DNA of 64,000 bases from a virus. The notes under the pieces are model-generated. The model saw only the letters and a program-made list of their open reading frames with translations. It did not search any database and had not been told where the DNA came from. A program made the translations under genes and the position numbers. Positions 1,086 through 43,654 of the stretch are shown in pieces (the first letter of the stretch is position 1; each line of letters begins with the position of its first letter). The DNA lies in IMG/VR virus record IMGVR_UViG_3300038679_000131, positions 34,839-98,838 of that record; one strand, written 5' to 3'.

Positions 1086-2138
1086 TTATTTCTCCATCAT
1101 AATTTTTACCATATTTTCAATAGCATTTTTACCTAAATTAGTAAAAAATTGTTGTTGATAAAAGAAATTATCTTCATTTCTTTCATTCCAGTTTTCCCAT
1201 CTTTCGATCCTAAGTCTTACCATTTCAACTAATTCTTCATAGGTATCATAACGAAATTCATTTGCATAAAGTTCTTTATAACTGAGTCTGTTTGGAACAA
1301 CGGGAACACAGCCACAAAGAACAGATTCAATCATGGCAATTCCGTAAGTTTCTTGCAAGGCACAAGATATAGAAATCTTGGATTTATTAAGTACGTTGTA
1401 ATACTCTTGTTTAGTTTTGCAAATTTCCTTAGTGCTTACTAAAGACCATTTAAAATTACTTTCAAACTCAGTTCTTAACTTGCTAAAAATTTCTGGTTGT
1501 TTTTCTGGATCAAGGCGATGAGGGAAAACAATAATATTTTCTTTATAAGTAGTTGGTTTTATAAACTCAGGATAAATAGGTAAACCTGTAACATGAATTT
1601 TGTTTGTTAATTCATTGTTATGTCCTTGGTACTCAAAAAAACCTTTTCGTTGATTTAAAATCAATTCCTTATGAAATTCTGTAGCAACAAATATTCCATC
1701 ATAGATTCTAAACCAACATCTTTCAAGATGTCCTCCCCAGTTTCTCATTCCTCTCTGAGTGATAAAATCGTAAGGGTCATACGTCCCGGCGTGCATTATT
1801 GCAAAAATCTTAAATTTTAAGCCTAAAGCATTCCTAATGTAAGCTAACATTTCTATTCCAGGAAACCAGCCATCGGCTATTAAAAAAGAATCATTGTCTT
1901 GGACTTCTCCATTTTCAAACATTCTACAAATTGATTGTAATTGTGTGGATTTATAGTAATTTGTTCCAATAACATCTAGAAAGGATCCTTGTCTTATCTT
2001 ATCAGTTAAAGGAACACCTGTTGCTAAAAAAGTATAAGGGATTTTTAATCTTTCAAATTCTGTTTGAAACCAATTCCACCATTGCATAGAATATCGTTCT
2101 TCAAGGGGCTCTATAGGGACAAAGATGATTCTTCTCAT
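1086..2138 (-). CDS. GT-B (GT4-like) glycosyltransferase, probably DNA-base modifying
   Basis: C-terminal QETYGIAMIESVLCGCVPVVPNRLSYKE motif and FPHRLDPEKQP; lies in the folE/queD/queE cluster. Confidence 0.8.
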   Translation of the reverse strand: MRRIIFVPIEPLEERYSMQWWNWFQTEFERLKIPYTFLATGVPLTDKIRQGSFLDVIGTNYYKSTQLQSICRMFENGEVQDNDSFLIADGWFPGIEMLAYIRNALGLKFKIFAIMHAGTYDPYDFITQRGMRNWGGHLERCWFRIYDGIFVATEFHKELILNQRKGFFEYQGHNNELTNKIHVTGLPIYPEFIKPTTYKENIIVFPHRLDPEKQPEIFSKLRTEFESNFKWSLVSTKEICKTKQEYYNVLNKSKISISCALQETYGIAMIESVLCGCVPVVPNRLSYKELYANEFRYDTYEELVEMVRLRIERWENWNERNEDNFFYQQQFFTNLGKNAIENMVKIMMEK

Positions 2139-2371
2139 GGAACATATCCCCCAGCCTTCCCTCTTGGCATAGCATTTTTCTTAGGGGTAAATTCCTCAAT
2201 TTCTTTTTCTATTTCTTTTAAGACAATTTCTTTCAAAGCAGCACGGGCTTTATCCATATCATAATCTTCATTTACAAGGACTTCTTCACTGTAATCTACT
2301 CTGATGGACTCGAAATTGCCTATATTTAGGGTTCGACCGAGACTATATTTAATTCTGCGTTCAGAAAACAT
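2135..2371 (-). CDS. Conserved small phage protein (TxNxGNFESxRVD type); start reassigned to ATG 2371
   Basis: MFSERRIKYSLGRTLNIGNFESIRVDY, preceded by AGGAGG RBS. Confidence 0.6.
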   Translation of the reverse strand: MFSERRIKYSLGRTLNIGNFESIRVDYSEEVLVNEDYDMDKARAALKEIVLKEIEKEIEEFTPKKNAMPRGKAGGYVP

Positions 2372-2786
2372 TTTCAATCCTCCTTCTTTTATGAGATTCA
2401 CTAATTTTCCTTTTATGTTCCTCTGTGAACTTTTTTCCTTTTTTATGGATTCTCTCATGCTTTATACGAAGAACATAATCTAAATTGGAAAGAAAATTGT
2501 TAGTTTTTATTTCATCTTTGTGATGGCCACAATAACCTTTAGGGCATTCTCCTACAAAGGTTTTTAATACTAATCTATGAATAAGTTTATATTTTCTCTT
2601 TACTTCATCGTCTTTTCTTATCATTACAAAAAAATATCCCATATTGTTTAGTACAGGATTTAAAATCCTACCTGAATAAGTTCCATAACCAGAAGATATC
2701 CTTTTGATTCTTCCCATGTTACTTATTGCATAGTTTGAATATCCAGGAATATCTTTCCAAATTTCTTCTCTCTTTTTAAGTCTCAT
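2361..2786 (-). CDS. NUMOD4-HNH homing endonuclease with NUMOD3 tail
   Basis: EIWKDIPGYSNYAISNMGRIK; HRLVLKTFVG...HHKDEIKTNNFLSNL; FTEEHKRKISES. Confidence 0.85.
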   Translation of the reverse strand: MRLKKREEIWKDIPGYSNYAISNMGRIKRISSGYGTYSGRILNPVLNNMGYFFVMIRKDDEVKRKYKLIHRLVLKTFVGECPKGYCGHHKDEIKTNNFLSNLDYVLRIKHERIHKKGKKFTEEHKRKISESHKRRRIENVF

Positions 2787-3733
2787 CTATTTTTCCTAAT
2801 AGAATTAAAAAACAAATTCCAATGTAACAGAACAGGTGATCGTGCTGTGCATTTCATGCATAAATCAGGTAAATGAATGAATCCTTTACTATGTTGATTC
2901 CTTAACTTCTTTACTTTTTCTCCATTCCAAATTTCTTCAAGAGATTGCTCATATAAATTCCCATATACATTTCCTTCGTTGTCTCCCCAAGCGAAGCAAC
3001 AAGAAGAAACATTGCCGTTACTTTGTACTGAAACCGATAGCCAGGGATTTAAACAGATTCCAATATTGTTGTTTTCTTCTGGTTTAAGTCTGTCTCCAGA
3101 ACGATGCAAAATGCAGCAATCAGGAATAGAACGGATATTTATTCTTTTAAAGACGTTTCCCATTCTACACATTAGAAAATTTTCAAGAATGGTTTTCTCT
3201 TTTTCCCAACCTTTCAATTCAATAAACTGAAAATCAATCGGGATTCTCCTCTCTGCAAAATAAAAAGCAGTATGGAGTAGCTGTTCTAAGTATGTATCAG
3301 GATCATCAAACTTACTTCCTTTGCGAATTTCATTTCTCTTGGTAATAGAATCAACAGAAATAGTAATATAATCTAAGTCTTTACAAGAATCTAACAGTTT
3401 TGGAAATAAGTCTCCGTGTGTGCTTAATCCAACTAATATTCCTTGACTTTTCAGAAGTTCTATCATAATAGGAACATCGGGATTAAGAAGGGGCTCACCA
3501 GACATCTGAAGTTCTATAAAATAACTTCCTTCTAAGTCTCCTCTCTTTATCATGGTCTTTAGCAAATCAATGTCAAACATTTTTCTTTTATCTTCACGAT
3601 GATAATATTTTCTAGGACACATTTTACAATCATGGTCACAATGAGAGGACGCCTCTATTTGATAGATTTCAGGCAGTTTTACTTTGAAAGGAGGAGGAAA
3701 TTTAGGCATTAAAAACCTCTTTTGGTTGTTCAT
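2783..3733 (-). CDS. Radical SAM protein with SPASM/twitch domain
   Basis: CDHDCKMC (CxxxCxxC), SGEPLL, and C-terminal CLNPW...GNVSSCC...GNL...SLEEIWNG...CMKC. Confidence 0.85.
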   Translation of the reverse strand: MNNQKRFLMPKFPPPFKVKLPEIYQIEASSHCDHDCKMCPRKYYHREDKRKMFDIDLLKTMIKRGDLEGSYFIELQMSGEPLLNPDVPIMIELLKSQGILVGLSTHGDLFPKLLDSCKDLDYITISVDSITKRNEIRKGSKFDDPDTYLEQLLHTAFYFAERRIPIDFQFIELKGWEKEKTILENFLMCRMGNVFKRINIRSIPDCCILHRSGDRLKPEENNNIGICLNPWLSVSVQSNGNVSSCCFAWGDNEGNVYGNLYEQSLEEIWNGEKVKKLRNQHSKGFIHLPDLCMKCTARSPVLLHWNLFFNSIRKNR

Positions 3734-3959
3734 TACCTATAACAGAAATTATAAGTTTTTTAAGTAAATCTACTGACAGTTCCTCGTCGTCAGAAGCGAG
3801 ACTGGCTACATAGGCTATAGCTGTGAAGGCTATATTTTCCATATATTTATTAGTTTCCTTCTCGTTTTTGACCTGGTCTAGCCGGGTGCTGTAGGTCATA
3901 AAGATTTGCTCGCTTTTTCCCATCGGTCGGACACACAAGAGGTCCTTTTGGAAGTCCAC
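3702..3959 (-). CDS. Hypothetical protein (start uncertain)
   Basis: Fills the operon gap; overlaps 3850..4083. Confidence 0.35.
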   Translation of the reverse strand: MDFQKDLLCVRPMGKSEQIFMTYSTRLDQVKNEKETNKYMENIAFTAIAYVASLASDDEELSVDLLKKLIISVIGNEQPKEVFNA

Positions 3960-4083
3960 AATGTTTTGCAGTATATGGCAGTCTTAAATAAACACAAAGA
4001 CCTTCAATTGATTTATCTGGATGGATTTTAAATTGGCAAATCTTATTCAAAATAAACCTCACTGCCATTTTCTTCATCTTCAA
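3850..4083 (-). CDS. Small Cys-containing hypothetical protein (start uncertain)
   Basis: Operon context only. Confidence 0.35.
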   Translation of the reverse strand: MKMKKMAVRFILNKICQFKIHPDKSIEGLCVYLRLPYTAKHCGLPKGPLVCPTDGKKRANLYDLQHPARPGQKREGN

Positions 4084-4390
4084 AAACTGAAACCATATAA
4101 ACTGGAAACATAGGAGTAAGATACATTCCTATCTCTTTAGCAAGCATTTCACATGAGGTACTTTTTAAATCAAGTGGAAAAAGTTTTAAGTATTCTTCCA
4201 GTTCTCTTTTCACTCGGATAAATTCAAGTTCTCTATCATCATGGGAGACTTCAATTTTAAGGGTGACATGAAAAATATGTCGGTGAGGCCAACGTAAAAA
4301 AGAAACGTCATCATGAGGGCATTTATCCCAAGAATGAATACCCTCAAATTGAGACTTGACAACTATCAAAGTTTTAAATGGTCTTCTCAT
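4043..4390 (-). CDS. QueD/PTPS-like T-fold protein (divergent paralog); start reassigned to ATG 4390
   Basis: FEGIHSW...PHRHIFHV...DRELEF...SCEMLA...VSVFEDEENG matches the His-triad and terminal Glu layout of PTPS/QueD; directly downstream of folE. Confidence 0.65.
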   Translation of the reverse strand: MRRPFKTLIVVKSQFEGIHSWDKCPHDDVSFLRWPHRHIFHVTLKIEVSHDDRELEFIRVKRELEEYLKLFPLDLKSTSCEMLAKEIGMYLTPMFPVYMVSVFEDEENGSEVYFE

Positions 4391-4391
4391 T

Positions 4392-4955
4392 TTATCTCCG
4401 ACTATGTGCCAATAATTGAAAAAATTCTTCCCTAGTTGAAGCACTATCCATAAATGCTCCCGCCATTACTGAAGTTATTACAGGACTTAAACTCTTTACT
4501 CCCCTACATCTGATACAGTTGTGTATTCCTTTCACAACAACCGCCACCCCTTTAGCTTTAATAATTTTTATGAAAGCATTAGCAATTTGTTGGGTATAGG
4601 TTTCTTGCAAAATTGCTTGTTTTGACAATAACTGAGCCAGCCTAATAATTTTTGATAGTCCGATTACTTTGTTAAGTTCTTCTCCTGGAATATAAGCAAT
4701 GGTTGAATCATATTCTACTGGCAATAGGTGATGAGGACAAATCGAATGAGAAATAATATCTGAAACAAAAATAATTCCTGAATAGTCTGTTGGAAATGCT
4801 TTTGAAAAAATCTGGTCTAAACCTTCTTGAATTTTTTGTGGAGACAGAATCATTTCGTCAAATGCTTTCCTTACTCTTTCAGGTGTATCTCTGAAATTTG
4901 GATCTTTTAAATTGATTCCTAACTTGGCAAGCATACTTGTGATAGCTAATTCCAT
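4392..4955 (-). CDS. folE: GTP cyclohydrolase I
   Basis: DTPERV, SICPHHLLP, GLSKIIRL, QE, HNCIRCRGV, TREEF. Confidence 0.95.
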   Translation of the reverse strand: MELAITSMLAKLGINLKDPNFRDTPERVRKAFDEMILSPQKIQEGLDQIFSKAFPTDYSGIIFVSDIISHSICPHHLLPVEYDSTIAYIPGEELNKVIGLSKIIRLAQLLSKQAILQETYTQQIANAFIKIIKAKGVAVVVKGIHNCIRCRGVKSLSPVITSVMAGAFMDSASTREEFFQLLAHSRR

Positions 4956-5486
4956 TTATTTTTCCTCTTTCCATCTTCGTTTAGCAGAATCACTCAATTT
5001 TTGTTTATGTTCCTCTGAGAAAATCCTTCCTTTACATGATTTACTTATTTTCCTTTTCCATTCTTCAGTAATAATTCTTCCTTTTAGTGTAATACTCATT
5101 TTTTGTTTGGATTCTTTTGAAAGAATCTTTCCTGTTTTATGTTTTGTTATATGTTCTCCATTATAAACCCATTCTAAATTAGATAGAAAATTACTTGTTT
5201 TTATTTCATTTTTGTGATGACCACAACATCCTTCAGGACAAGGACCTACAAAAGTTTCAAGGACTAATCTATGGATTTTACAATTATTTTTTTCTTCTCC
5301 ATTTTTTCTTAAAACCAAAATGAAGTAACCATTATGATTAATATAAGGTTTTAAAATTTTTCCTTCTCTTGTTCCTCCTTTTCCACATTTCCAAGGAGTA
5401 ACTCTTTTCACCCTTCCCCAATCAGATACTTCATAGTCAGTATAAATTGGGTGTATCTTCCATATTTCACGTTTTAATCTACCCAT
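4956..5486 (-). CDS. NUMOD4-HNH homing endonuclease with NUMOD3 repeats
   Basis: EIWKIHPIYTDYEVSDWGRVK; HRLVLETFVG...HHKNEIKTSNFLSNLEW; SEEHKQKLS repeats. Confidence 0.85.
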   Translation of the reverse strand: MGRLKREIWKIHPIYTDYEVSDWGRVKRVTPWKCGKGGTREGKILKPYINHNGYFILVLRKNGEEKNNCKIHRLVLETFVGPCPEGCCGHHKNEIKTSNFLSNLEWVYNGEHITKHKTGKILSKESKQKMSITLKGRIITEEWKRKISKSCKGRIFSEEHKQKLSDSAKRRWKEEK

Positions 5487-5504
5487 TTTTTGTCTTTTAA
5501 AAAT

Positions 5505-5548
5505 TCAAAAGGCACTTGCGGGAGAGAGAACTTTCAAGTGCCTTTTGA
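5505..5548 (-). terminator. 14-bp stem-loop, probable terminator or processing site after the Lys-rich gene
   Basis: TCAAAAGGCACTTG...CAAGTGCCTTTTGA, followed by ATTTTT on the minus strand. Confidence 0.6.
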
Positions 5549-5582
5549 GGTTGAAGGTTAATAAGAAACAGGCTGGGTTCAG

Positions 5583-6344
5583 TTATTGCGCCGCCTCTGC
5601 TTCCCCAGCTACAGGAACATCCTTTCCTTCTTCTTCAGTTGGAACAGTTTCAGCCTTCTTGGCTTTCTTAGCCTTTTTGATTTCTTTATCTTCCTTTTCC
5701 AACTTTGCACCCTTTGGAACAGGAACAGGCTTAGGATTAGGAGAAGCTTTAAAAATCTCTACAAAAATATCAGAGTAAATCCGACCTGCCCTAATCATAC
5801 CATAAGCATGATCACCTAACCCCGCATCCACATAAACCTGAGAAAGTTTCTCTTTGATTTCTTTTTCTTTTTCTTTAACCTGTTCTAGATTCATTTCACC
5901 AAAGAGATTACGGCACATTGGTTTCATGCCCACACCACCCAATTTTGGCTTCATAGCCCTTGCAACTTTCTCTTTCTTGGGCTTTGGTTCTTTCGGAACT
6001 TTTTCTTTCTTCACTTTCTCAGCTTTTTCCTTTTTGGGCTTCTTAGCTTTTTTAGGATCAGCATCTTCAGGAGAACCAACAATTTTCGCTCCGTCTACTA
6101 GAGCGGATTGAATATTAACCAACATATCAGAAAGGGTGTTTTCTTCTTCGGAATCAGGCTCAACTTTATCCAGATTAGCTAAGAAATCTTCTTTCATCTG
6201 AAGAACAGTTTTACCTTCTACAAACTCAATTCCCCTTTCTGCACAAACAATTAGAAAATCATTCCAGGAAACTGCCAATTCTTTAGCAGGTTCAGGAACT
6301 TCTTCTCCCATTGCCGCCGCCACTGCGATTTCTGCTTCTGTCAT
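5583..6344 (-). CDS. Lys/Glu-rich protein with histone-H1-like linkers, probably nucleic-acid binding
   Basis: KKAKKPKKEKAEKVKKEKVPKEPKPKKEK; has its own promoter (6386-6412), AGGAGG RBS and downstream hairpin. Confidence 0.7.
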   Translation of the reverse strand: MTEAEIAVAAAMGEEVPEPAKELAVSWNDFLIVCAERGIEFVEGKTVLQMKEDFLANLDKVEPDSEEENTLSDMLVNIQSALVDGAKIVGSPEDADPKKAKKPKKEKAEKVKKEKVPKEPKPKKEKVARAMKPKLGGVGMKPMCRNLFGEMNLEQVKEKEKEIKEKLSQVYVDAGLGDHAYGMIRAGRIYSDIFVEIFKASPNPKPVPVPKGAKLEKEDKEIKKAKKAKKAETVPTEEEGKDVPVAGEAEAAQ

Positions 6345-6385
6345 GTTGACCTCCTATCATAATGTGAGTAATTCTTATCTATCAC

Positions 6386-6412
6386 ATTATACGACAATGG
6401 ACGATTTTTAGA
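6386..6412 (-). promoter_or_regulatory. Phage-specific promoter, copy 1 (TCTAAA-N10-TGTCG-TATAAT)
   Basis: Minus strand tctaaa aatcgtccat tgtcg tataat; identical spacing at four loci. Confidence 0.7.
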
Positions 6413-6432
6413 GTCCTAAAAATTAAATTATT

Positions 6433-7158
6433 TTAATTTTTTATTTCTAAAGTTCCTGAAGGGTCTAACCATAATTTATGGAGTTGATAATTAATAATAC
6501 AATTACCTAAGATTTCACTGTCAGAGCGCAAAAGAGCATCTGCTAAATCCTTTATATCAAATTTTCCCCAACAAGGGGAATAAGCAAAACGAGCCCCACA
6601 ATCAGTATTATCTTGAATAGTTCTTTGAATTTCAAAGGCAAATTTTAGATCATTTTCATTTTGGATAACAAATTTAATAAAATCCCTTCCACTAAGATTT
6701 TTAAACGATTCAATCGGCATCATATATTCTTCCATTCCAGAAGAAGGAAGCTTATAATCCACAACCCAACTATCAACATAAGCTTGAATGTTATTTAAGT
6801 TTAGTGGACAAACTAATGGCATACTGCCATTAGTTTCAACAGAAATATTCCAATCCTCTTCACCAAGAGTCTCAACTAATTTCCAAAACTCAAAATATTG
6901 TAAAAGGGGTTCACCACCAGTAATAGTTACTTTTTTAAACTTAGCTTCACTTAAATACCTTTTTTCATATCCTTTTACCCGATTAAGAACTTCTAAAACA
7001 GAAACAGATTCTCCTGATTGAAGACTATTCCATTGTTTCGTGTCACAATAGAAACATCGGAGGTTACAACCAGCAAAACGAATAAACACAGAAGGAGTTC
7101 CTTGACCAAAGAAATTCACTTCTCCGTCGAATCCCATGAACATTTCAGCGAGTCTCAT
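6433..7158 (-). CDS. queE: 7-carboxy-7-deazaguanine synthase (radical SAM)
   Basis: DGEV..QGTPSVFIRFAGCNLRCFYCDT, TGGEPL, VETNG, QLHK. Confidence 0.93.
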   Translation of the reverse strand: MRLAEMFMGFDGEVNFFGQGTPSVFIRFAGCNLRCFYCDTKQWNSLQSGESVSVLEVLNRVKGYEKRYLSEAKFKKVTITGGEPLLQYFEFWKLVETLGEEDWNISVETNGSMPLVCPLNLNNIQAYVDSWVVDYKLPSSGMEEYMMPIESFKNLSGRDFIKFVIQNENDLKFAFEIQRTIQDNTDCGARFAYSPCWGKFDIKDLADALLRSDSEILGNCIINYQLHKLWLDPSGTLEIKN

Positions 7159-7170
7159 TCACTCCTCCTA

Positions 7171-7428
7171 TTAACTTAGAATTACCCATCCTTTTTTAAG
7201 TCCATATATTGGACCAAAAAGAATATAATTAATTTTCATATTCTTTTCTCTACCAGTATAGATAAGGGGTTTTCCATTTTTCATTTCTTCACCAGAATAC
7301 TCAGTTTCTTGAAGTATAATTGAATCTCCTACTTGAAAGTTACGATCATTTAACCTTAATTCATAAGGTTTATCTCCAATATAAGAAGCAATAAATACAT
7401 CTTTGTCTGTCTTTAAAGTATGAACCAT
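7171..7428 (-). CDS. ASCH/PUA-like DUF3850 protein; start reassigned to ATG 7428
   Basis: HTLKT...GDKPYELRLNDRNFQVGDSIILQE...YTGR...GWVILS. Confidence 0.8.
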   Translation of the reverse strand: MVHTLKTDKDVFIASYIGDKPYELRLNDRNFQVGDSIILQETEYSGEEMKNGKPLIYTGREKNMKINYILFGPIYGLKKGWVILS

Positions 7429-7429
7429 T

Positions 7430-7801
7430 TTAGTTTCTCCTCCATTCTGCAAAAGAATTTTCAGTTTCATGTAATTTAATCCTACTAAGAATACAATTAT
7501 GACTAAAAAACTTTCCTTTTAAAAGTACAGCAAAATGACGGACAAGATTCTCAGCAGTAGGTTCAAAATCAGGAAACACATGATTTAAAACTGTATGGTC
7601 AACCTTATTGATAATTTCTGTCTGAATAATTTTTTTCAAATCTGAAAAATCAATAATCATATCACCTTGAAAAGTATCAGTTGCTTTAACTTCTATTTCA
7701 AGTTCAAACCGATGGCCATGCATATTCGCACATTTTCCAGGATGATATGTTAAATAATGACTTGCTTCAAACGTAAACCGTTTACAGACTGTGAGTGACA
7801 T
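7430..7801 (-). CDS. queD: 6-carboxytetrahydropterin synthase; start reassigned to ATG 7801
   Basis: FTFEASH...KCANMHGH...MIIDFSDLK...DHTVLN...PTAENL...LHET. Confidence 0.93.
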   Translation of the reverse strand: MSLTVCKRFTFEASHYLTYHPGKCANMHGHRFELEIEVKATDTFQGDMIIDFSDLKKIIQTEIINKVDHTVLNHVFPDFEPTAENLVRHFAVLLKGKFFSHNCILSRIKLHETENSFAEWRRN

Positions 7802-8021
7802 GATTTCTTTTCCCATTTTTCCCGAATTTTGAAAACGCAATCCCACCTTTAGCTTTCATTTTAATTTCTAATTCAACTATCTTCCTTTGCAAAGTAGATC
7901 GTCCTACCCCTAACTTTTCAGAAATTTCATCTATTGTTAAGTTCTCTTCCCAGTGCATTTTTGAAATCATTTCTTTGACTGAACCGTATCCGTTGTGGAG
8001 TAAATTTTCCCAATATATCAT
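7782..8021 (-). CDS. Small HTH protein (resembles 38498..38737)
   Basis: LTIDEISEKLGVGRSTLQRKI. Confidence 0.65.
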   Translation of the reverse strand: MIYWENLLHNGYGSVKEMISKMHWEENLTIDEISEKLGVGRSTLQRKIVELEIKMKAKGGIAFSKFGKNGKRNHVTHSL

Positions 8022-33085: not shown

Positions 33086-33461
33086 TGTGTTCCAGCTATC
33101 AGAATTGCTGGATGACTCTAACGAGTCCTGTTGTTAGCAGTGGTATAAGCACACTTGCCATGTCTACCCCTTGGACGATATGGTTTGATCTTCTCTGGGA
33201 CAGTCTGAACACAAACTTTAAATGTTTTCCAGTATCCCTTTGTGTCTATCCCACATCCAAGAAGCTCACGATCAACGCCTTCTTTACACTTCTCACATAG
33301 AAATCGGGAGAAGTCTAAAGAACGGAATTGATTTTTATTGGTTTTGAATTTTGAGCCACAAGAGTCGCACTTACTTACATCATCTATGGCTCTTTTGGGA
33401 TGGATGAATTTGATTACTTTCATTTGGGAAGTGGCCTTGTTTCGTTCGTTTTTTTAGCTTA

Positions 33462-33491
33462 ATTATATCATGCTGTCCTAGGACAAGACAA
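33462..33491 (-). promoter_or_regulatory. Strong early sigma70 promoter
   Basis: TTGTCT-18-TATAAT with extended -10 (TGaTATAAT). Confidence 0.7.
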
Positions 33492-33623
33492 TGATAATTT
33501 CTCTTTCCTATCAGTTTCCAGGATGAATAGGTTTTGTATTAGTTTTGGATTAATGTTTTTGTTCAAATGTTTTCTCTTTGATTGGTTTGGATTGTTTGTG
33601 GTTTGATTTTTCATTTTATTTTC

Positions 33624-33652
33624 ATTATATCATAAACAGTAGGGAAAGACAA
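33624..33652 (-). promoter_or_regulatory. Strong early sigma70 promoter (tandem copy)
   Basis: TTGTCT-17-TATAAT with extended -10 (TGaTATAAT). Confidence 0.7.
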
Positions 33653-34048
33653 GTGAAATATTAGTACCCATATAGCTTTCCAGGTCATCTTGGATATAGT
33701 TTTGTCCTTTTCAAGAGTTAGTAGAAGCGAACGGGTTTGTTTTTCTTATAATGGAAAAGGTTTTGTGCTAAGGTAGAGGAGTGTCCTGGCTTAGGGCAAA
33801 ATATAGAGAAAGGGAGAGTAATGGATTTTTAATAGATTTCTGTGCTTTTACCCTTGGATTTCTTGCTTTCTACCCTACCGCGGTGACCCCTCCTCCAATA
33901 TAGATTTTTTTCATAATCCTTGGTCATTTTTTCATAGGGCTGGACAACCGCCAATGCTTTTGTTTATATGATCCGCCATCTCCAACCGCCAGCTCGATAA
34001 TCCAACCTTCCATCCATCCAGCCAATGACTGTTCTCCAACCGGATGGG

Positions 34049-34330
34049 CTATGGAACATAGCCATATTCTCCTTCTGGTTCTTCTGAAGGTCTTGAATTA
34101 TTAAGAAGGTCTTTAATTATATCAAGTTTAGCAAGCACCCTTGTCTCAAAACCTTTTAATGGGTCCTGTATTGCATCAAGAGATGTAGTTACGTTTACGT
34201 TACGTCCCGTATCCAATATAAGTTTCTCCATCTGGCGACTTCTGGATATCTCTTTCTCCTTAGCTTGTTTACGGAGTTCTATTAAAGCTTCCTGTGAAAG
34301 ATACATAGTAACCCTCTTCTTGCTGTCCAT
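34049..34330 (-). CDS. Ribbon-helix-helix (CopG/Arc-like) regulator
   Basis: KKRVTMYLSQEALIELRKQAKEKEISRSRQMEKLI. Confidence 0.75.
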   Translation of the reverse strand: MDSKKRVTMYLSQEALIELRKQAKEKEISRSRQMEKLILDTGRNVNVTTSLDAIQDPLKGFETRVLAKLDIIKDLLNNSRPSEEPEGEYGYVP

Positions 34331-34350
34331 TTAGTCTTTCTCCTTTAACT

Positions 34351-34704
34351 ATACGTTAGTGATACGTTAACGTATATCCACAAGTTATTTTTCTCTATCC
34401 TTTTCAACAAGGGATTTAATTAAATCAATTATTGTTTCCCTATGCTCAATTAAAGATTCATCAATTCTCCACTCCATATTTCGTATCTCTCCTTTGATAG
34501 ATTCTATCACTCCTTCTTTTCTTAAAAGTCTTGATACTACCAATTCTCTAGGTAAGGACATTCTTTTTGCAAGCCTGTTTAATCTCCAAATGTCATCTGG
34601 ATGGTTAATAACTATTGTAACTTCTTTTTCTTCTTCCACTTTTCTTATAAGCCTTGTCATAACTTTATCTCCTTTCTTTATACGTTAACGTATCACTAAC
34701 GTAT
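34351..34704. repeat. 26-bp inverted repeat pair (34351-34376 and 34679-34704) flanking 34385..34660
   Basis: ATACGTTAGTGATACGTTAACGTATA and TATACGTTAACGTATCACTAACGTAT. Confidence 0.85.
34385..34660 (-). CDS. Second RHH-like DNA-binding protein
   Basis: EVTIVI...IWRLNRLAKRMSLPRELVVSRLL. Confidence 0.5.
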   Translation of the reverse strand: MTRLIRKVEEEKEVTIVINHPDDIWRLNRLAKRMSLPRELVVSRLLRKEGVIESIKGEIRNMEWRIDESLIEHRETIIDLIKSLVEKDREK

Positions 34705-34901
34705 TGTCAACCAAAAAAATTAATTATTCATCCGCCACTTGAATAACCGCCACTGATATAGTCCTTCCAGTAACTCAGCCCTAGCCGAGCCGTCCATCCG
34801 GGTGGCTCGTGTTACTACCTTCACCAACAGGAACTGGTTTTTGCTCTTATCCTACAAGTCCTGGATAATTTCATATCTCTCCTGGAATCGTATAGGAGCT
34901 A

Positions 34902-35510: not shown

Positions 35511-35708
35511 CCGCCACTTCAATCGAACCGCCACCCCAATAATCCATCCAACCGCCAGTCCTTCCAAGTAGCAGGTTATTTAACCTTCCTTCCGGGTGGG
35601 AACCGCCACCTCCTTTTAACCGCCAGGTCTTTAATCCGCCCTTCCGCCGCCACCCTTCCTAACCGCCGCCGCCACCACCCTACCAATAGGGCGTCCCGCC
35701 CGGGTGGG
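35511..35708 (+). repeat. Cluster of co-oriented CCGCC motifs
   Basis: About 12 CCGCC copies (counting overlaps) in 200 bp, all on the plus strand. Confidence 0.8.
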
Positions 35709-35722
35709 TATTCAGACATTTG

Positions 35723-35752
35723 AATATACGAATATTATAATATTCGTATATT
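35723..35752. repeat. Perfect 30-bp palindrome, followed by a 21-bp inverted repeat (35767-35787 and 35823-35843)
   Basis: AATATACGAATATTA|TAATATTCGTATATT. Confidence 0.9.
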
Positions 35753-36158
35753 TAGATATTCTAATATATACTGATTTAATATATAATCGCTTAATATATA
35801 TTAGAATAGTATAGATTATAGAATTATATATTAAATCAGTATAGAATAAAATATATTTTCATAGTAGAAAAGATAATATATTTTATTATAAAGTTTACAT
35901 GATAATGTATAGTTGTAAATACATAATTGTAAACTGCATATTATATGCCATATTGCAATTATGGAAATATTTATTTTTCGATAAAGACATACAATCATAA
36001 GCGATTTACCTCAAAATTGCTTAAACGTGCTCATATGAGCGTACAAGCAATTTCTCTATTTTACCACTATATTTTGATAGTTTACTGTCAATTTTATTCT
36101 TAATAATAGTTTATTATTTATTTTCACTTTCTATAGTTTTGGCACGAAAAAAGCACTA

Positions 36159-36187
36159 TTGACAGCTATATTTTATATTTCTATAAT
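36159..36187 (+). promoter_or_regulatory. Perfect-consensus sigma70 promoter
   Basis: TTGACA-17 nt-TATAAT. Confidence 0.85.
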
Positions 36188-36257
36188 CAGATATACTTTA
36201 GATTATCAGATTATCAGTTGATAACATGAGATGTTAATCAGCATATCTGATAACGAT

Positions 36258-36275
36258 TGTTCTTTGATAACTGAA
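36258..36275 (+). promoter_or_regulatory. boxA-like antitermination element
   Basis: TGTTCTTTGATAACTGAA closely resembles rRNA-leader boxA (GTTCTTTGAAAACTGAA type). Confidence 0.55.
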
Positions 36276-36387
36276 TAAATTTGCAGCTTGCACAAGATAT
36301 GCAGTTGATAGCTGATAGCTTGCACAAGATGAGCAAATCAGGCAAGTGAAAAGAGCACTTGCACAAATCAGGCAAATTTGCCTTAGT

Positions 36388-36413
36388 AAGCGTGTTATGA
36401 GCACGCTTTTTTT
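36388..36413 (+). terminator. Rho-independent terminator
   Basis: AAGCGTGTT-ATG-AGCACGCTT followed by a T tract. Confidence 0.75.
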
Positions 36414-36511
36414 GTGTCTGAAATATCTCATGCTTTAATCATTAGATGAGCGTGAGCGTGTTCTGATAGCTCTATAGAGCACGTTAAAATCTATACATCT
36501 GAGGTAAAATC

Positions 36512-36976
36512 ATGACTAAATTTTTTGAGATGATTTCGGCAAAGTGCAAAGCACTCTCGGCAAAACATGAAATCGAATTGATTGATGAAAAAATCAATTC
36601 GCTTGCTGAGAAAAAAGCGAAATTGACAGGCAAAGCAGACGTGAGAAAAGAAACGTCTGCAAATGTCAAGAGCAAGAGCAAAGCACAAGCGACTTGCTCT
36701 AAAGATGATCTTATCATCAACGTTGCGGCGAATGTGCAAGTAAAAGATATTTGTCGCAATATAGAGCGCAAGTTACAACGTAACTTATCAAGCAAGAGTG
36801 AAAGTGATAAACAAATGCTTTACAATCATTTGTTTTACTTTTACTCTATCAAACACGTTAATACTTTGCCGACTATTCACGGCAAAAATAAAGATTATCA
36901 CATTAATGATTATGTCAGTCAACGTACTAACAGCGTCATTAATGATATTACTTGCCACATTAACTTTGGCAAGTAA
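36512..36976 (+). CDS. Candidate pre-early protein in the GG/CC-poor island
   Basis: GAGGTAA RBS; only 3 Gly, 1 Pro and 0 Trp in 154 aa. Confidence 0.7.
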   Translation: MTKFFEMISAKCKALSAKHEIELIDEKINSLAEKKAKLTGKADVRKETSANVKSKSKAQATCSKDDLIINVAANVQVKDICRNIERKLQRNLSSKSESDKQMLYNHLFYFYSIKHVNTLPTIHGKNKDYHINDYVSQRTNSVINDITCHINFGK

Positions 36977-36996
36977 TTGCTTTTAACTTTTAACTA

Positions 36997-37036
36997 TACA
37001 ATGCAACGTTGTTATGTTATGCAACGTTGCATTGTA
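36997..37036. repeat. 15-bp perfect hairpin
   Basis: TACAATGCAACGTTG...CAACGTTGCATTGTA. Confidence 0.8.
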
Positions 37037-37055
37037 TTAAATGAGGTAAACAACA

Positions 37056-37187
37056 ATGCGTGAATATAACATTGCAATTGTTATTTATCTATCTGCTATC
37101 TGTTATTTTACTTATCAGATAGCAATATTCACTTATAACAATTTAACTATGGCAAGTTATCTACTAACTAACTTGCCTATGAGATAA
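37056..37187 (+). CDS. 43-aa hydrophobic peptide (not in ORF track)
   Basis: GAGGTAA RBS; MREYNIAIVIYLSAICYFTYQIAIFTYNNLTMASYLLTNLPMR. Confidence 0.5.
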   Translation: MREYNIAIVIYLSAICYFTYQIAIFTYNNLTMASYLLTNLPMR

Positions 37188-37191
37188 TAAA

Positions 37192-37356
37192 ATGATTAAC
37201 TACTATCATATCAAAGTAATACAAACGTCTATCATCATAACTCGCTTACAAGAGTTATTAAAGCTAACTGATAAAGCGCATAAGCGCATTAACTTATTAC
37301 TTGATATTGCTGTATTACAATCGCAGTTAAAAGAGTATCAAGTATTATGCAATTAA
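37192..37356 (+). CDS. 54-aa peptide lacking Gly, Pro and Trp (not in ORF track)
   Basis: MINYYHIKVIQTSIIITRLQELLKLTDKAHKRINLLLDIAVLQSQLKEYQVLCN. Confidence 0.4.
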   Translation: MINYYHIKVIQTSIIITRLQELLKLTDKAHKRINLLLDIAVLQSQLKEYQVLCN

Positions 37357-38045
37357 CTATAGATAGTATGTTACTTATTATCAAGTAACAATAGTAAGTA
37401 ACATACTATTACTACTTAAACATTACTTAAACAATACTTAAACAATACTTATGCCAGTATGCCTAACAAATCATAAAATTTTTTCGTGCGCATCGTCTGT
37501 ACCCTTACAGCACAAATTATATTTTTAAGGTTTTCTCAACCACCTGGGATACTAATCTGTACCTGTAAACTACAAACATAAATTTTCAACTTTTTCCATC
37601 CTCCTGGGTTTCCTTCCTTTTTATCTTCTATTACTGTACTCACATAGCACAAATTATATTTTTAAGGTTTTTCCAAAGGACATGGAATAGTCCTACTCCA
37701 ATCTATCCCACCACCATCTTCTCTCTTATCTCTCTTTCTCTCTCTGTTCTACATATACAAAAACTTTTTCATTTCAGAATTTTGTAGGAATGAAAACAAA
37801 GGAATTAAAAACACACAATAATTTTTATAGAAATTTAGGAAAGACCTGGGAAATTAAATTTTACCAATTAAGTAATCAAAAACAAAAAGGAGAAAGATTA
37901 AGATTACACAAAGGATTAGGAAATCAATCATTTTCATTGTTCCTATTTAATCTTTCTTCTTCTCTTGAGCATTTACTTGACATAGCACAGAGAGAATAGA
38001 TTATTAATAGGATTAGGATGATGAAAGGGATTAGGAAATAATAAA

Positions 38046-39314: not shown

Positions 39315-39833
39315 ATGGGTAGATTGAAGCGGCGAGAGGATGATAACCCTCCAGAAAATGGTAAAAACCTTCCGTCCTGCATTGAAGACAAATTAGTTAT
39401 AGACAAATATACTATTGTTAGATTGTTAGCTGAAATGGGTTTGTTTCAGCATGAGATAGCCACTTGTCTTAATATTAGTAATACTCGGTTTTCTGTCCAG
39501 CTTGGTAAAGATGCAAAACTAAGAGAAGCATTAGAATTAGGTAAACGTAAACCAGACCAGCAAGTTCAAATGTCATTGTATCAAACTGCTCTTGGTTATA
39601 ATTATCAAGAAGTTGTTGTGGAAGAGGAATATTTGATTTCTCAGAAGGATGGATGTAGGATTGAAACTCCAATAGGAAAAAAAGTCAAAACTTCTAATAA
39701 GCACCAACCTGCAAATCCCACAGCAATTCTATTCTGGTTGAAGAATCGCTTGCCGAAAGTTTGGAAGGATCGTGTTGAAGCTACTATCACATTGCGGGAT
39801 AGGGCTGAGATGGCTCATAGGTTTGGGGCATAA
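39315..39833 (+). CDS. terS: Terminase small subunit
   Basis: HTH (EIATCLNIS), ALELGK...V..SLYQTALGY, PANPTAILFWLKNRLPKVWKDR; first gene of the late arm. Confidence 0.75.
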   Translation: MGRLKRREDDNPPENGKNLPSCIEDKLVIDKYTIVRLLAEMGLFQHEIATCLNISNTRFSVQLGKDAKLREALELGKRKPDQQVQMSLYQTALGYNYQEVVVEEEYLISQKDGCRIETPIGKKVKTSNKHQPANPTAILFWLKNRLPKVWKDRVEATITLRDRAEMAHRFGA

Positions 39834-40778: not shown

Positions 40779-41159
40779 ATGGCAGAGATTCCAAGCATTC
40801 CAGTAATTGTAGCTCAAAACCAAACGGCTAAGATTACTTCTCATAGTTTTGTAATTGGTGCAGCAGAGACAAGTGGAACCTCTGCTATTTCTTATAATGG
40901 TATGGTAAAGAATTTACATTTAGTGGTTCCCAATTTCACCAATGTCGTCACTGTTACTGTTACTTTGGTAGATAGCAGTGGAAGAGTTTTATGGACCTCT
41001 GCGGCAAAAGCTAAAAATGCCAGTTATAATTTGAGTATTGAGGCTGAATGGTTTGACCAATTAGTTGAAAGTACCCTTATTTGGACAATTACTCTTTCGG
41101 GGGTTCCTGGTGGGTCAGGTGGTACAGTAGTTCTTGTACCAAGATATTATGGGGTTTAA
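40779..41159 (+). CDS. Small beta-sandwich protein, probably virion-associated
   Basis: Val/Thr-rich alternating strands; late-operon position. Confidence 0.55.
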   Translation: MAEIPSIPVIVAQNQTAKITSHSFVIGAAETSGTSAISYNGMVKNLHLVVPNFTNVVTVTVTLVDSSGRVLWTSAAKAKNASYNLSIEAEWFDQLVESTLIWTITLSGVPGGSGGTVVLVPRYYGV

Positions 41160-41161
41160 TT

Positions 41162-43654
41162 ATGCAACATAGATGTGCTTTAATTCCAGTTGTAGGGAAG
41201 CTCCCAGAAAAATACCTCCTCCGAGACGACTTCACCACGGCTCTCGCCGCGCCCCTCCCGGCAACCTTCCCCATGTCTCCGGGGCCTGGAATCTGGACGC
41301 CCCGGGATGTGGAGAACAAAATCGCCATCGCCTCTGGTTGGGCAGAGTTCACCCCCCAGGCGTCCCCGGTTTATGCCGAGCAGGATTTGATTTGCAAGAA
41401 TGTCCCCGTTACCAGGGAGGCTGGGGCGATCATTGTAGCCCAATGGCGCTGCACTACGGATGGAAGCCACTATCCCCTGGCCTTATTAACCTCCCAGACG
41501 CCGAGTTGGAATCACACTAACGTCAACGCCGGGTTCTGGCGGGGGGCGGCGGGGGCCTTGTATGGGATCGCCAATTCAACCTCTTACGGCAAAATTGCCG
41601 ACTTTGTTGCTGACGGGACAATTTACAATCTGATTATCGATTTGCGGGCTGCTGGGGTTTATCTCTATATGCAGGGCGGGACCTATACCTATCCCGAACT
41701 GGTTTTTTCTTCCATTGCTGGAACGGGTACGCCTCTCTATGTGGGGGCGGCAGGGTACGATGCTGCGTTCGGGGTGAATTTTATCAGAGTCCCCCAGGAG
41801 AAATTGCTGTTTGCGCCGGAGGTGTCAGACGGTTTTAGTATAGACGGTGAGTCCGATGCCCTGGCTCATGCCGAGACTTTCGGGCTGGGCGCGGGCGGCG
41901 GCGAGAAGTTCTGGCATTACCGTGACCCGTACCGGAATACCAAAGCCCTGACACTCAAGGGCCAGTTGCATTGTCATACCACCAATTCGGACGGGGTTGA
42001 TACCCCAATAGCCCTGGTCACGGCCTACAAGAATGCCGGGTATCATTTTATCGGAGTGACAGATCATTACAACGGCACGACGTATCCTAATTTCACCGTC
42101 GACCCTGGGGTGTCAGGGATCACGTTTCTACCCAGTTGCGAAGGCGGCGGAACTTCGGTTGAATTGCTGTGCTGGAATGTGTCACAGGGCTACAGTGCGG
42201 CCACTCAGGTCGTGATTGATGCGGTTCTGGCTGAAGGTGGGATGATCGGCTTGCCCCATCCTAATTATGAGACACCTATCACCACGGCTTTTACTTACCT
42301 TTGGAGCCGTGGGTTGCACCTGATCGAGGCTTATAACGGAGCTGTGTATAACGGTGTTAGCGGCCCTGCTGCTGGCGAGGGCCGGGCTCAATGGGATGCT
42401 CACCTGAGTCTGCATAGGATATTCTACGGGATATTTACTGATGATTGCCATGATATTTCCGATCCAGGCGGATTCGATAATGGCTGGGTTATCGTTTTTG
42501 CCGACACGAACACCCCGGCAGCCATAGTTGATGCCCTGAAAAAGGGCAATTTCTATGGCAGTAACGGGCCTGATTTTTCTCAGTCCTTTGACCGGGAGAC
42601 AGGGGTTATTACGGTGACCACCTCCGCTGCGGCTACCATCCGGTTTATTGGGGCGGGTGGGGCGGTGCTGCAAACCACCAATGATGTGACTACGGAGACT
42701 TATACATTGGTGGGGACCGAACTTTATGTACGGGCTGAGGTGATCCGCAATTCCGATAGCAAGTGGGCCTGTGGTCAACCGATCATGCGGGAGACCTGGA
42801 GCCTGAGCGGCGGGCAAATGCTGAATACGCCCCCGATGCCTAATGCCAATCTGATCGGCAACAGCACTTTTGATGATGGCTCATGGTGGTCTGTGGATAC
42901 CCCGACCGATTGGGCCATTTCCGGGGGGACAGCTAACAAGGCGGCTGGGGCCTCCGCCAGGCGGCTATACAAATCGTCTCTTATAACCCTGGGCCGGTTT
43001 TATCAACTGACCTGGGACATCTTGAACCGGACGGCGGGGAACTTTTTTTCTACTATCCAATATTCCAGCAAGTACCGGACGGCAGACGGTTCCTATGTTG
43101 ATTATTTGTTTTCCTTGTCAGGACAAACCTTTGCCATATATGGCGATGCGGCGTCTGCTGGGTCCATTGACAATGTTTTCCTGGAAGAAGTGCCGTTCAC
43201 GGCCTGCATCAAGGCCATTGAGTCGTCAACCCCGGATACGGAGGTGGGTATTGACTTGATGACGGTGCCCTCGGCCAGCATGGCAGGGTTTATTCTAAGC
43301 GCCGATCATCCTGATTACCCGTGCAATTTTGTCCTGGCTTTATTGGTCAGGACGAACCCCGGCGACTTTGTTTATCTAATTAAGTACGTGAACGGGGTGC
43401 CGACCCAAGTGTTCTCCACGTCAACAAGTTTTGCCGATGGCCGCCGCCTGATCGCCCGGAAATTCGGCAACAATTATTTCCTGTCGCAGCACGGAGGCTA
43501 TGTCAACACTGGCGTGGTTGCCGATGCCGGGATCATCAATAATCGTTATTTCGGTCTGTTCACCCCGGACCCATTGGTTCGGTTTGATAACTGGCTGTTG
43601 CGGCCAACGGGCACTGGGCAGGAGTATTCGTGGTTTAATCGGTTTTTGAGGTAG
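41162..43654 (+). CDS. Multidomain protein with a PHP (CehA/McbA-like) metallohydrolase domain and beta-sandwich/CBM-like domains; start reassigned to ATG 41162
   Basis: KGQLHCHT..SDG, GVTDH, PHP, EAYN, TDDCH, GNFYGSNGP; NLIGNSTFD CBM-like start; GC-rich DNA. Confidence 0.7.
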   Translation: MQHRCALIPVVGKLPEKYLLRDDFTTALAAPLPATFPMSPGPGIWTPRDVENKIAIASGWAEFTPQASPVYAEQDLICKNVPVTREAGAIIVAQWRCTTDGSHYPLALLTSQTPSWNHTNVNAGFWRGAAGALYGIANSTSYGKIADFVADGTIYNLIIDLRAAGVYLYMQGGTYTYPELVFSSIAGTGTPLYVGAAGYDAAFGVNFIRVPQEKLLFAPEVSDGFSIDGESDALAHAETFGLGAGGGEKFWHYRDPYRNTKALTLKGQLHCHTTNSDGVDTPIALVTAYKNAGYHFIGVTDHYNGTTYPNFTVDPGVSGITFLPSCEGGGTSVELLCWNVSQGYSAATQVVIDAVLAEGGMIGLPHPNYETPITTAFTYLWSRGLHLIEAYNGAVYNGVSGPAAGEGRAQWDAHLSLHRIFYGIFTDDCHDISDPGGFDNGWVIVFADTNTPAAIVDALKKGNFYGSNGPDFSQSFDRETGVITVTTSAAATIRFIGAGGAVLQTTNDVTTETYTLVGTELYVRAEVIRNSDSKWACGQPIMRETWSLSGGQMLNTPPMPNANLIGNSTFDDGSWWSVDTPTDWAISGGTANKAAGASARRLYKSSLITLGRFYQLTWDILNRTAGNFFSTIQYSSKYRTADGSYVDYLFSLSGQTFAIYGDAASAGSIDNVFLEEVPFTACIKAIESSTPDTEVGIDLMTVPSASMAGFILSADHPDYPCNFVLALLVRTNPGDFVYLIKYVNGVPTQVFSTSTSFADGRRLIARKFGNNYFLSQHGGYVNTGVVADAGIINNRYFGLFTPDPLVRFDNWLLRPTGTGQEYSWFNRFLR

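Follow-up and report, generated by a model that had tools for sequence, protein, structure and literature searches.

Organisation of the locus

The window analysed here is a stretch of 64,000 nucleotides (positions 34,839 to 98,838 of the viral record IMGVR_UViG_3300038679_000131) from a 98.8-kb genome whose assembly closes into a circle through a 28-bp overlap. Within it an island of unusual composition (35708–37501, assigned to neither strand) is placed where the replication arm and the packaging arm diverge. GG and CC occur in this island only as GGCA/TGCC or in GAGGT ribosome-binding sites, with four exceptions (TGGA at 35963, ACCT at 36009, ACCA at 36064 and one GGCG at 36727). Both borders, at 35708 and 37501, are abrupt. 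On the left (35511–35708, plus strand) about 12 co-oriented CCGCC words lead up to the switch in composition, and the last element immediately before it is CCCGGGTGG, which is single-copy in the genome and also closes the left flank in a diverged relative, L006; possible roles for it would be a packaging site, an origin or an end. On the right (37497–37676, plus strand) a unit of about 43 nt is repeated three times (TGTACCC...CACAAATTA...), and it is here that the banned words begin. The first copy is followed by a conserved AACCACCTGGG (37538–37548) and the second by the variant CATCCTCCTGGG; the unit is absent elsewhere in the genome and recurs at the right border of two relatives, L006 and L012. 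This conserved array is compatible with a T5-type stop signal but does not speak for one.

Inside the left border lies a 30-bp palindrome (35723–35752, no strand assigned), within a very A+T-rich segment of about 200 bp that contains nested inverted repeats. It is followed by a putative sigma-70-type promoter on the plus strand (36159–36187), recognised by consensus match alone, in which TTGACA-17-TATAAT agrees at 12/12 positions; this is the only such match in the 98.8-kb genome, in keeping with the perfect host promoter named in the preliminary description. The leader downstream (36190–36413, plus strand) carries three CTTGCACAAGAT-type repeats and ends in a hairpin resembling an intrinsic terminator (36388–36408) followed by a T run; it matches no Rfam family, and nothing credible was found in Rfam. 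Two further elements, without assigned strand, separate or follow the genes: between ORF1 and ORF2, a perfect inverted repeat of 16 bp (36996–37037) with AACGTT in each arm, and, after ORF3, a hairpin with 29-nt arms followed by three 11-nt tandem repeats (37353–37451).

The three genes of the island are all on the plus strand, and none has a PHROG match or a Pfam match above threshold. In ORF1 (36512–36976; 154 aa, with GAGGTAA upstream) a long N-terminal helix is joined by a disordered linker to a conserved C-terminal domain; H106, H115 and D145 are invariant and C81, C148 and H149 nearly so. No match to it was found in PADLOC, by PDB sequence profile, or in Foldseek PDB, VIA-align wide, BFVD and ESM Atlas searches; among 1.8 billion proteins searched by profile there were only 8 representatives, which do not reveal a function, and refolding the C-terminal domain by itself produced an unusable model (pLDDT 46). 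There is a weak, sub-threshold match to Pfam MH1 (E 0.007), a fold derived from His-Me-finger nucleases. ORF2 (37056–37187) encodes a hydrophobic protein of 43 aa, again with GAGGTAA upstream, and L006 has a small ORF at the same position. ORF3 (37192–37356; 54 aa) matches no family, and small ORFs occupy its position in L006, L010 and L012.

A putative 7-deazaguanine cluster lies 28–35 kb from the island (1086–7846, minus strand). It comprises a weak glycosyltransferase match under the Pfam cut-off (1086–2138), a radical-SAM/SPASM protein (2783–3733), FolE (4392–4955; PF01227, 5e-45), QueE (6433–7158; phrog_2076, 6e-31) and QueD (7430–7846; phrog_2389, 1.5e-19), all on the minus strand. A DpdA-like protein, a TGT-like transglycosylase, is encoded just before the window (genome positions 33271–34221; phrog_887, E 7e-36) and is about 32% identical by tblastn to annotated phage queuine tRNA-ribosyltransferases, the known phage DpdAs. 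The earlier proposal that this phage encodes guanine-modification enzymes thus agrees with four predicted proteins (FolE, QueD, QueE and the DpdA-like protein), while no QueC was seen among the proteins scanned. The dpdA gene is the sole DNA-modification gene that we found; a search of the genome for three common families of DNA methyltransferase gave none, and an enzyme of these families was rejected as a possible masker of GGCA. Neither sigma region 2 nor a phage RNA polymerase was detected, although the T7-type search for the latter is uninformative as its control gave no match.

Depletion of GG and CC in the island

The island (35708–37501) contains 22 GG/CC dinucleotides, about 77 being expected from its own base content. 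Counted over 35709–37500 these are 13 GG and 9 CC, of which 17 lie in GGC/GCC, 4 in GGT/ACC (two of them in the GAGGTAA ribosome-binding sites) and 1 in GGA, with GGG, CCC and TCC absent; the recount matches the figures of the preliminary description exactly. Base content does not account for this. In 5000 mononucleotide shuffles the sum of GG and CC averaged 77 and never fell below 51, and windows of 30–31% G+C in the same genome hold 57–75 GG+CC per kb against 12 in the island, whose G+C content is 29%. The stretches free of GGD/HCC in the island reach 542, 456, 440 and 256 bp, as compared with a maximum of 117 bp elsewhere, and no comparable stretch exists anywhere else in the 98.8-kb genome, where the observed/expected ratio for GG/CC is 1.29. 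The ban is graded, with observed/expected counts of 0/36 for GGG, 3/83 for GGA and 14/83 for GGT. Other dinucleotides also differ between the island and the rest (CG 0.95 vs 0.47; GC 2.0 vs 0.93), and TC/GA is not depleted (0.91). No recurring positive motif accounts for the composition beyond the ribosome-binding site and a few copies of CAACGTTG.

The ban is equal on both strands and spans the promoter, leader, genes and terminators; the non-coding parts hold 15 banned words in 2411 nt where about 91 GG+CC are expected. The depletion acts on DNA, on both strands and in coding and non-coding sequence alike. Causes at the level of RNA (avoidance of internal Shine-Dalgarno sequences, CsrA GGA sites or Rho YC sites) were rejected because the ban is strand-symmetric, covers DNA that is not transcribed, and leaves TC/GA undepleted.

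Among 851 codons there is 1 banned word, whereas genome codon usage predicts a mean of 62 (minimum 39), and permuting synonymous codons within genes still yields a mean of 33.6 (minimum 21). All ten glycine codons are GGC, all five prolines are preceded by G, and the single tryptophan is followed by C. Glycine makes up 1.2% of the island proteins against 6.0% in the rest of the genome, proline 0.6% against 4.8% and tryptophan 0.1% against 1.6%, which agrees with the earlier remark that the constraint reaches the proteins. These observations support the conclusion that the ban is kept by selection, which overrides codon choice and reshapes protein sequence.

The island and the same sharp borders are present in three diverged relatives, L006, L010 and L012, as the preliminary description had suggested might be sought. 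The best-kept part of ORF1 is 69–81% identical in nucleotide sequence, and by this sequence comparison the ban has outlasted 20–30% nucleotide divergence. Two additional viral scans and a genome scan gave no further relatives, and no similar DNA was found in the isolated-phage collection; relatives recovered through the portal protein are fragments that do not include the island region, and the L006 contig stops short of the expected position of dpdA.

The one freely tolerated context is narrower than had been thought. The preliminary description predicted that GGC is spared, and this holds for GGCA/TGCC and not for GGC/GCC in general: 57 of 58 GGC words are GGCA, although elsewhere in the genome only 32% of GGCN words end in A. 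GGCA/TGCC is 4.4 times more frequent than expected, in coding and non-coding sequence alike. The same pattern can be seen from 29 homologous proteins without use of their DNA: in 88 of 90 cases the residue after glycine has an A-first codon, and in 26 of 26 the residue before proline is leucine or methionine. The ribosome-binding site of L010, GAGGCAA, is itself of the GGCA type. The sole free exception, newly identified in this analysis, is thus GGCA/TGCC rather than GGC. 'GG unless before CA' is odd as an enzyme specificity; a natural one would be the positive recognition of GGCA.

Avoidance of restriction sites, which had been put forward as an alternative, describes the island only in part. 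In the rest of the genome 6-bp palindromes are avoided (GAATTC occurs 5 times with 35 expected, AACGTT 0 times with 10 expected), and in the islands CTAG is absent and GATC reduced to an observed/expected ratio of 0.2. However, there are three copies of AACGTT in the island and none in the other 97 kb, so that the island is no general stealth zone; the islands also keep ACATGT, missing from the rest of the genome, and the main ban falls on a 2-nt step rather than on a site. The ratio for GG-bearing palindromes in the rest of the genome (0.46) lies within that for GG-free ones (0.30–0.54), so that there is no sign that GG sites are shielded.

Candidate readers of GG in duplex DNA

The ban costs the phage three amino acids and the normal ribosome-binding site, and at such a price something in the infected cell must read GG/CC on island DNA. 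We know of no described factor that accounts for a reader of this kind and, PAM readers aside, of none that reads the bare GG/CC step. The explanation that we favour, although we would give it somewhat less than an even chance, is that the island is a self-contained, first-exposed cassette, driven by a host-type promoter and concealed from whatever reads GG in duplex DNA. Its three small genes would act at the very start of infection, and selection would purge the GG/CC step so that a factor recognising guanine doublets cannot act while the cassette is needed. By analogy with the first-step-transfer DNA of T5, the cassette may be exposed before, or apart from, the remaining genome, in which case the reader would be something other than the phage transglycosylase, for example a nuclease or a CRISPR system that depends on a PAM. 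GGCA would escape by being invisible to this reader, most likely through 7-deazaguanine placed there by the phage DpdA, because GGC is a proven CAjan word and guanine N7 is the contact of major-groove readers of GG. Against this proposal, a DpdA that targets GGCA alone would modify about 2.5% of guanines, which is little for a cluster of about six genes.

The preliminary description had instead suggested that the island may be a zone kept unmodified so that it can be read first. In the version considered here GGA, GGG, GGT and GGCB would be the DpdA targets and GGCA would be left untouched by the enzyme, the purpose being access for host RNA polymerase or escape from a modification-dependent nuclease. 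The DNA-level depletion, the promoter and the pathway on which it was built are all present: DpdA and the CDG pathway are accompanied by one more radical-SAM enzyme and by a glycosyltransferase with a weak match, which makes a bulky adduct possible, and the graded ban resembles a graded enzyme specificity. The known DpdA words, of 2–3 nt with G followed by a purine (PMC7544227, PMC10484667), also fit the size of the ban. We nevertheless consider this version rather unlikely. The CAjan genome contains neither a GA/TC-free nor a GGC-free zone, and transcription still proceeds in phages with 100% deazaguanine (PMC10516641). Moreover, the leftward replication operon, which is rich in GG, likewise has to be read off the incoming DNA, GG-bearing palindromes are avoided genome-wide and appear unshielded, the ban is strand-symmetric, and the enzyme would need a negative specificity ('not before CA').

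If the leading DNA were free of GG/CC, CRISPR systems with NGG or CC PAMs would be unable to acquire spacers from it or to target it. To our knowledge GG/CC is the only 2-nt word read by a widespread defence, the PAM being NGG in type II-A and CC in type I-F, and the ban has the symmetry that a PAM ban must have. EcoRI and effective CRISPR targeting reach T5 only in its first-transferred DNA (10.1101/866236), and protection by dPreQ0 from Cas9 in vitro, reported in PMC10484667, could explain a masked GGCA. Yet GG/CC is plentiful outside the island, so that any benefit would require two-step entry or end-biased spacer uptake, and GGCA retains GG unless masked. PAM avoidance is improbable as an explanation. 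Still more so is self-immunity, in which an island protein such as ORF1 would break down host DNA at GG/CC-rich sites, either as a nuclease itself or by recruiting one, and the cassette would survive through its lack of such sites. Davison's proposal for T5 A1, that a motif-free first-transfer region protects the phage from its own nuclease (10.1101/866236), is a precedent. The conserved His, Cys and Asp residues and the MH1 match of ORF1 point the same way, but ORF1 has no match to a nuclease family or fold and the remaining phage genome would require protection of its own. Erosion of CC/GG by a context-specific cytosine deaminase or similar mutator, leaving only immune contexts, seems very improbable. 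Some CC-specific deaminases favour GCC less than any other context, and essential glycines and prolines do survive in one context only; however, the sharp borders fall on sequence elements that four phages conserve, both strands obey the ban alike although only one is exposed by transcription, no reading frame is broken, and ribosome-binding sites have been adapted rather than lost. Finally, low G+C, a foreign insert or misassembly might be suspected from the low G+C content and the shifted CG and GC ratios, but the chance of such an artefact is negligible given the shuffles and matched A+T-rich windows on the one hand and, on the other, the 29 homologues and the same island and flanking words in three further assemblies, four independent ones in all.

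Returning to the hidden cassette, a wider conjecture, which we regard as rather unlikely, is that many phage lineages carry stealth first-exposed cassettes under a near-absolute ban on one dinucleotide step, GGCA here being the DpdA target and the ban reflecting a factor of immunity or host takeover that reads naked guanine doublets. If so, the conflict between phages and hosts would have a general layer that has yet to be described, and modification motifs and early genes could be read directly from metagenomic sequence. For the present phage the predictions are the DpdA word (GGCA or the banned GG words), the first-exposed DNA and three first-acting small proteins.

Comparison with known systems

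Like the pre-early DNA of T5 and BF23, the island is a small block of genes under a host-type promoter (here a 12/12 consensus match) set off by repeat-rich non-coding DNA. It differs in being 1.8 kb rather than about 9.6 kb long and, as judged for ORF1–3 by PHROGs and Pfam, in lacking homologues of A1, A2 and dmp. T5 first-transfer DNA is without particular 6-bp sites, whereas the island bans a 2-nt step at the expense of its proteins; two-step entry and a position at the physical end of the virion DNA, inside a terminal repeat, belong to the T5 type and would be conjectural for the island.

The presence of a DpdA-like protein with FolE, QueD and QueE resembles the DpdA systems of CAjan, whose words were found by experiment to be GA and GGC (PMC7544227), and of iggy (GA). 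GGC is among the known words, which comprise 2–3 nt with G followed by a purine. CAjan shows no motif-free zone; in the present phage the DpdA is only about 32% identical to the known ones, and no QueC was seen among the proteins scanned.

The Bacillus phage SPO1 carries a host-takeover module in its terminal redundancy, with strong host-type promoters and modified DNA. The island shares with that module its small, presumably early genes, a host-type promoter, strong ribosome-binding sites and a predicted DNA modification, but there is no homology, a terminal repeat is for the island only a possibility, and we know of no word ban reported for SPO1.

With restriction-site avoidance and CRISPR PAM depletion the island has in common the selective loss of short words. 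Those losses are genome-wide and statistical, whereas that in the island is local and near-absolute, affects a dinucleotide while sparing one 4-nt word, and extends to the amino-acid composition.

Word depletion in the cassette and its relatives

The cassette at 35708–37501, which holds ORF1 to ORF3 and is the putative first-expressed block, is under a real, conserved and very strong word ban that acts at the level of the DNA. The preliminary description had counted 22 GG/CC dinucleotides in 35709–37500, and the count is exact: 17 lie in GGC/GCC, four in GGT/ACC and one in GGA, with none in GGG/CCC. Shuffling the island's own bases 5000 times gives a mean of 77 GG+CC and a minimum of 51. Their density is 12 per kb, as against 57–75 per kb in other windows of 30–31% G+C. 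The longest stretch of the island free of GGD/HCC words spans 542 bp; across the remaining 97 kb no such stretch exceeds 117 bp. Both borders are abrupt, the left at 35708 directly after CCCGGGTGGGT and the right at 37501, at TGTACCC. The GC step stands at 2.0 times expectation in the island (0.93 in the rest of the genome) and the CG step at 0.95 (0.47 in the rest).

The same island, sought in related sequences as the preliminary description had proposed, is present in three other assemblies. L006, whose small terminase is 69% identical, keeps it at the same position; the border words are shared, and three small ORFs are arranged as in the present phage. L010 and L012, both short metagenome contigs, carry it as well. 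Counting as banned all GG/CC outside GGCA/TGCC (GGA, GGG, GGT, GGCB and their complements), we see 6, 9, 0 and 3 words in the four islands against shuffle means of 72, 61, 54 and 37 respectively, the zero being that of L010 over 1067 bp. Because nucleotide identity among the four phages is only 69–81% even in the best-conserved part of ORF1, the ban is maintained and not merely inherited.

Across the four phages, ten island genes contain a single banned word in 851 codons. Re-encoding the same proteins with the codon usage of the genome gives a mean of 62 (minimum 39), and permuting synonymous codons inside each gene a mean of 33.6 (minimum 21). All ten Gly codons are GGC, which makes up 14% of Gly codons elsewhere, all five Pro codons are preceded by G, and the single Trp codon is followed by C. 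The non-coding parts hold 15 banned words in 2411 nt, several of them ribosome sites, where about 91 GG+CC are expected. The ban is equal on both strands, which rules out explanations at the level of the message only.

A four-nucleotide exception

We define here a 4-nt exception to the ban. GGCA/TGCC accounts for 57 of the 58 GGC/GCC words in the four islands, with GGCT and GGCC absent and GGCG present once where about 24 are expected jointly; in the rest of the genome only 32% of GGCN end in A. GGCA/TGCC stands at 4.4 times expectation in coding and non-coding parts alike, and G precedes GCA at least as often as base frequency predicts. A following CA thus makes GG fully acceptable, and hardly any other context does, so that the earlier prediction of a spared GGC has to be narrowed to GGCA/TGCC. 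Even the Shine-Dalgarno sequence of ORF1 is fitted to this rule in L010, where it reads GAGGCAA (L010 625–640) and not GAGGTAA as in the other three phages. Certain amino-acid neighbours should follow from the rule, and 29 homologues taken as protein sequences without their DNA show them: the residue after Gly is K, N, R, I, S or T in 88 of 90 cases (background 47%), Pro is preceded by L or M in 26 of 26 (background for L, M and V together 17%), and Trp is followed by Q in four of five.

Anatomy and genome setting

Directly left of the island lies a polar array of about 12 CCGCC words in 200 bp (35511–35700), also seen at 33948–34747 and all on the plus strand; possible roles are those of terminase-binding sites, of iterons or of Chi-like sites. 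After this flank come about 200 bp of A+T-rich palindromes and, at 36159, the genome's only perfect TTGACA-17-TATAAT, a promoter by consensus match only. Behind this predicted strongest promoter runs a leader of about 220 nt (36190–36413) that contains three repeats and closes with a terminator-like hairpin; it would either be attenuated or give an abundant small RNA. Conservation of this leader in L006 is not obvious. ORF1 (154 aa) follows, then a perfect 16-bp hairpin, the hydrophobic ORF2 (43 aa), ORF3 (54 aa), and a long hairpin with 11-nt tandem repeats. Exactly where GG/CC words resume there are three copies of a border unit, TGTACCC...CACAAATTA...AACCACCTGGG... (37497–37676), found nowhere else in the genome and kept in the relatives at one to three copies per phage (L006 7250–7310, L012 875–1010); candidate roles for it are a stop signal, a protein-binding site and a promoter of a different class. 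The ORF1 family is small: a large protein search gave 27 clusters, and 8 representatives turned up in a set of 1.8 billion proteins. Sequence and structure searches found no link to a known family or fold. The model of ORF1 pairs a long helix at the N terminus with a confidently predicted C-terminal domain in which His, Cys and Asp residues are conserved.

The whole record, of which the window takes up bases 34839–98838, is a circular assembly of 98,838 bp (28-bp end overlap; G+C 36.7%). Left of the island, on the minus strand, are genes for a primase, a DnaB-like helicase, a second helicase and an AAA ATPase, and farther left those for PolA, clamp, clamp loader, RecA-like and gp32-like proteins and the 7-deazaguanine cluster. 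The clamp-loader gene is split by an intein (Pfam Intein_splicing; genome 25821–27809, equal to L008 8822–10810), and many HNH/NUMOD homing-endonuclease genes are scattered through the replication arm. To the right, on the plus strand, are the small terminase gene (39315–39833) and, beyond a cassette of about 12 kb in which one gene matches a nucleotide-sugar epimerase, those for large terminase, portal, protease and capsid. The island thus lies where the two arms diverge, with the packaging genes starting 1.8 kb downstream. An 857-aa ORF in the cassette between the terminase genes (41081–43654) lies in a stretch of 54% G+C, against 37% for the genome, and has no PHROG match. A collection search found no similar DNA in isolated phages, and the best phage matches of TerL and DpdA share only about 30% identity with them.

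Guanine-modification genes, palindrome avoidance and possible readers of GG

The guanine-modification enzymes expected from the preliminary description are encoded by the phage: we detect FolE, QueD, QueE, a radical-SAM/SPASM enzyme and a DpdA-like transglycosylase (window 1086–7846; genome 33271–34221), together with a protein of weak, sub-threshold glycosyltransferase match. QueC was not found among the proteins scanned, and there is no match to the three common DNA methyltransferase families searched. By its gene content, the set would fit a base derived from CDG, perhaps with further decoration. Outside the island, 6-bp palindromes are strongly avoided (GAATTC 5 against 35 expected, GATATC 7 against 32; TTCGAA, AACGTT, ACATGT, AGATCT and AGGCCT all 0), and GATC and CpG both stand at 0.47, a pattern suggestive of strong restriction pressure and of a host poor in CpG.

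A link between the ban and guanine modification is plausible. As first proposed, the banned words would be targets of DpdA and the island would have to stay unmodified. In favour of this, the ban is graded, and DpdA words are short, with G followed by a purine (PMC7544227, PMC10484667). However, in phage CAjan, whose DpdA words are known by experiment to be GA and GGC (PMC7544227), there is no zone free of either, the largest GA/TC gap being 81 bp. This control weakens the original direction of the link. Moreover, phages with full deazaguanine substitution exist and are expressed (PMC10516641), and the GG-rich replication operon must likewise be read from incoming DNA; no phage RNA polymerase or sigma factor was found in the genome, the search for a T7-type polymerase being uninformative as its control was negative. 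In the rest of the genome GG-bearing palindromes are avoided as much as GG-free ones (ratio 0.46, as against 0.30–0.54), and an enzyme that takes GG except before CA would have an unnatural specificity. We regard this reading as unlikely.

We rank above it, tentatively and at somewhat less than even odds, the broad proposal that some factor reading GG in duplex DNA has access to the cassette, which must keep clear of naked GG. GGCA would then be the DpdA word, extending the GGC of CAjan, and the cassette would meet a host or phage nuclease or a PAM-dependent CRISPR system while the rest of the genome is still unexposed or is protected otherwise. There is a precedent in phage T5, with its two-step DNA entry, where sensitivity to EcoRI and CRISPR is confined to the first-transferred DNA and where the lack of target motifs in the first-transfer region has been suggested to shield it from a nuclease of the phage (10.1101/866236). 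Against this reading, GGCA alone would leave only about 2.5% of guanines modified, and the island keeps AACGTT, with three copies (36719, 37005 and 37023) where the other 97 kb have none (10 expected). L006 likewise has three in its island (6356, 6535 and 6678) and none in 19 kb of flanks, and ACATGT has a similar pattern in L006 and L010. At least one avoidance to which the rest of the genome is subject thus does not apply to the island.
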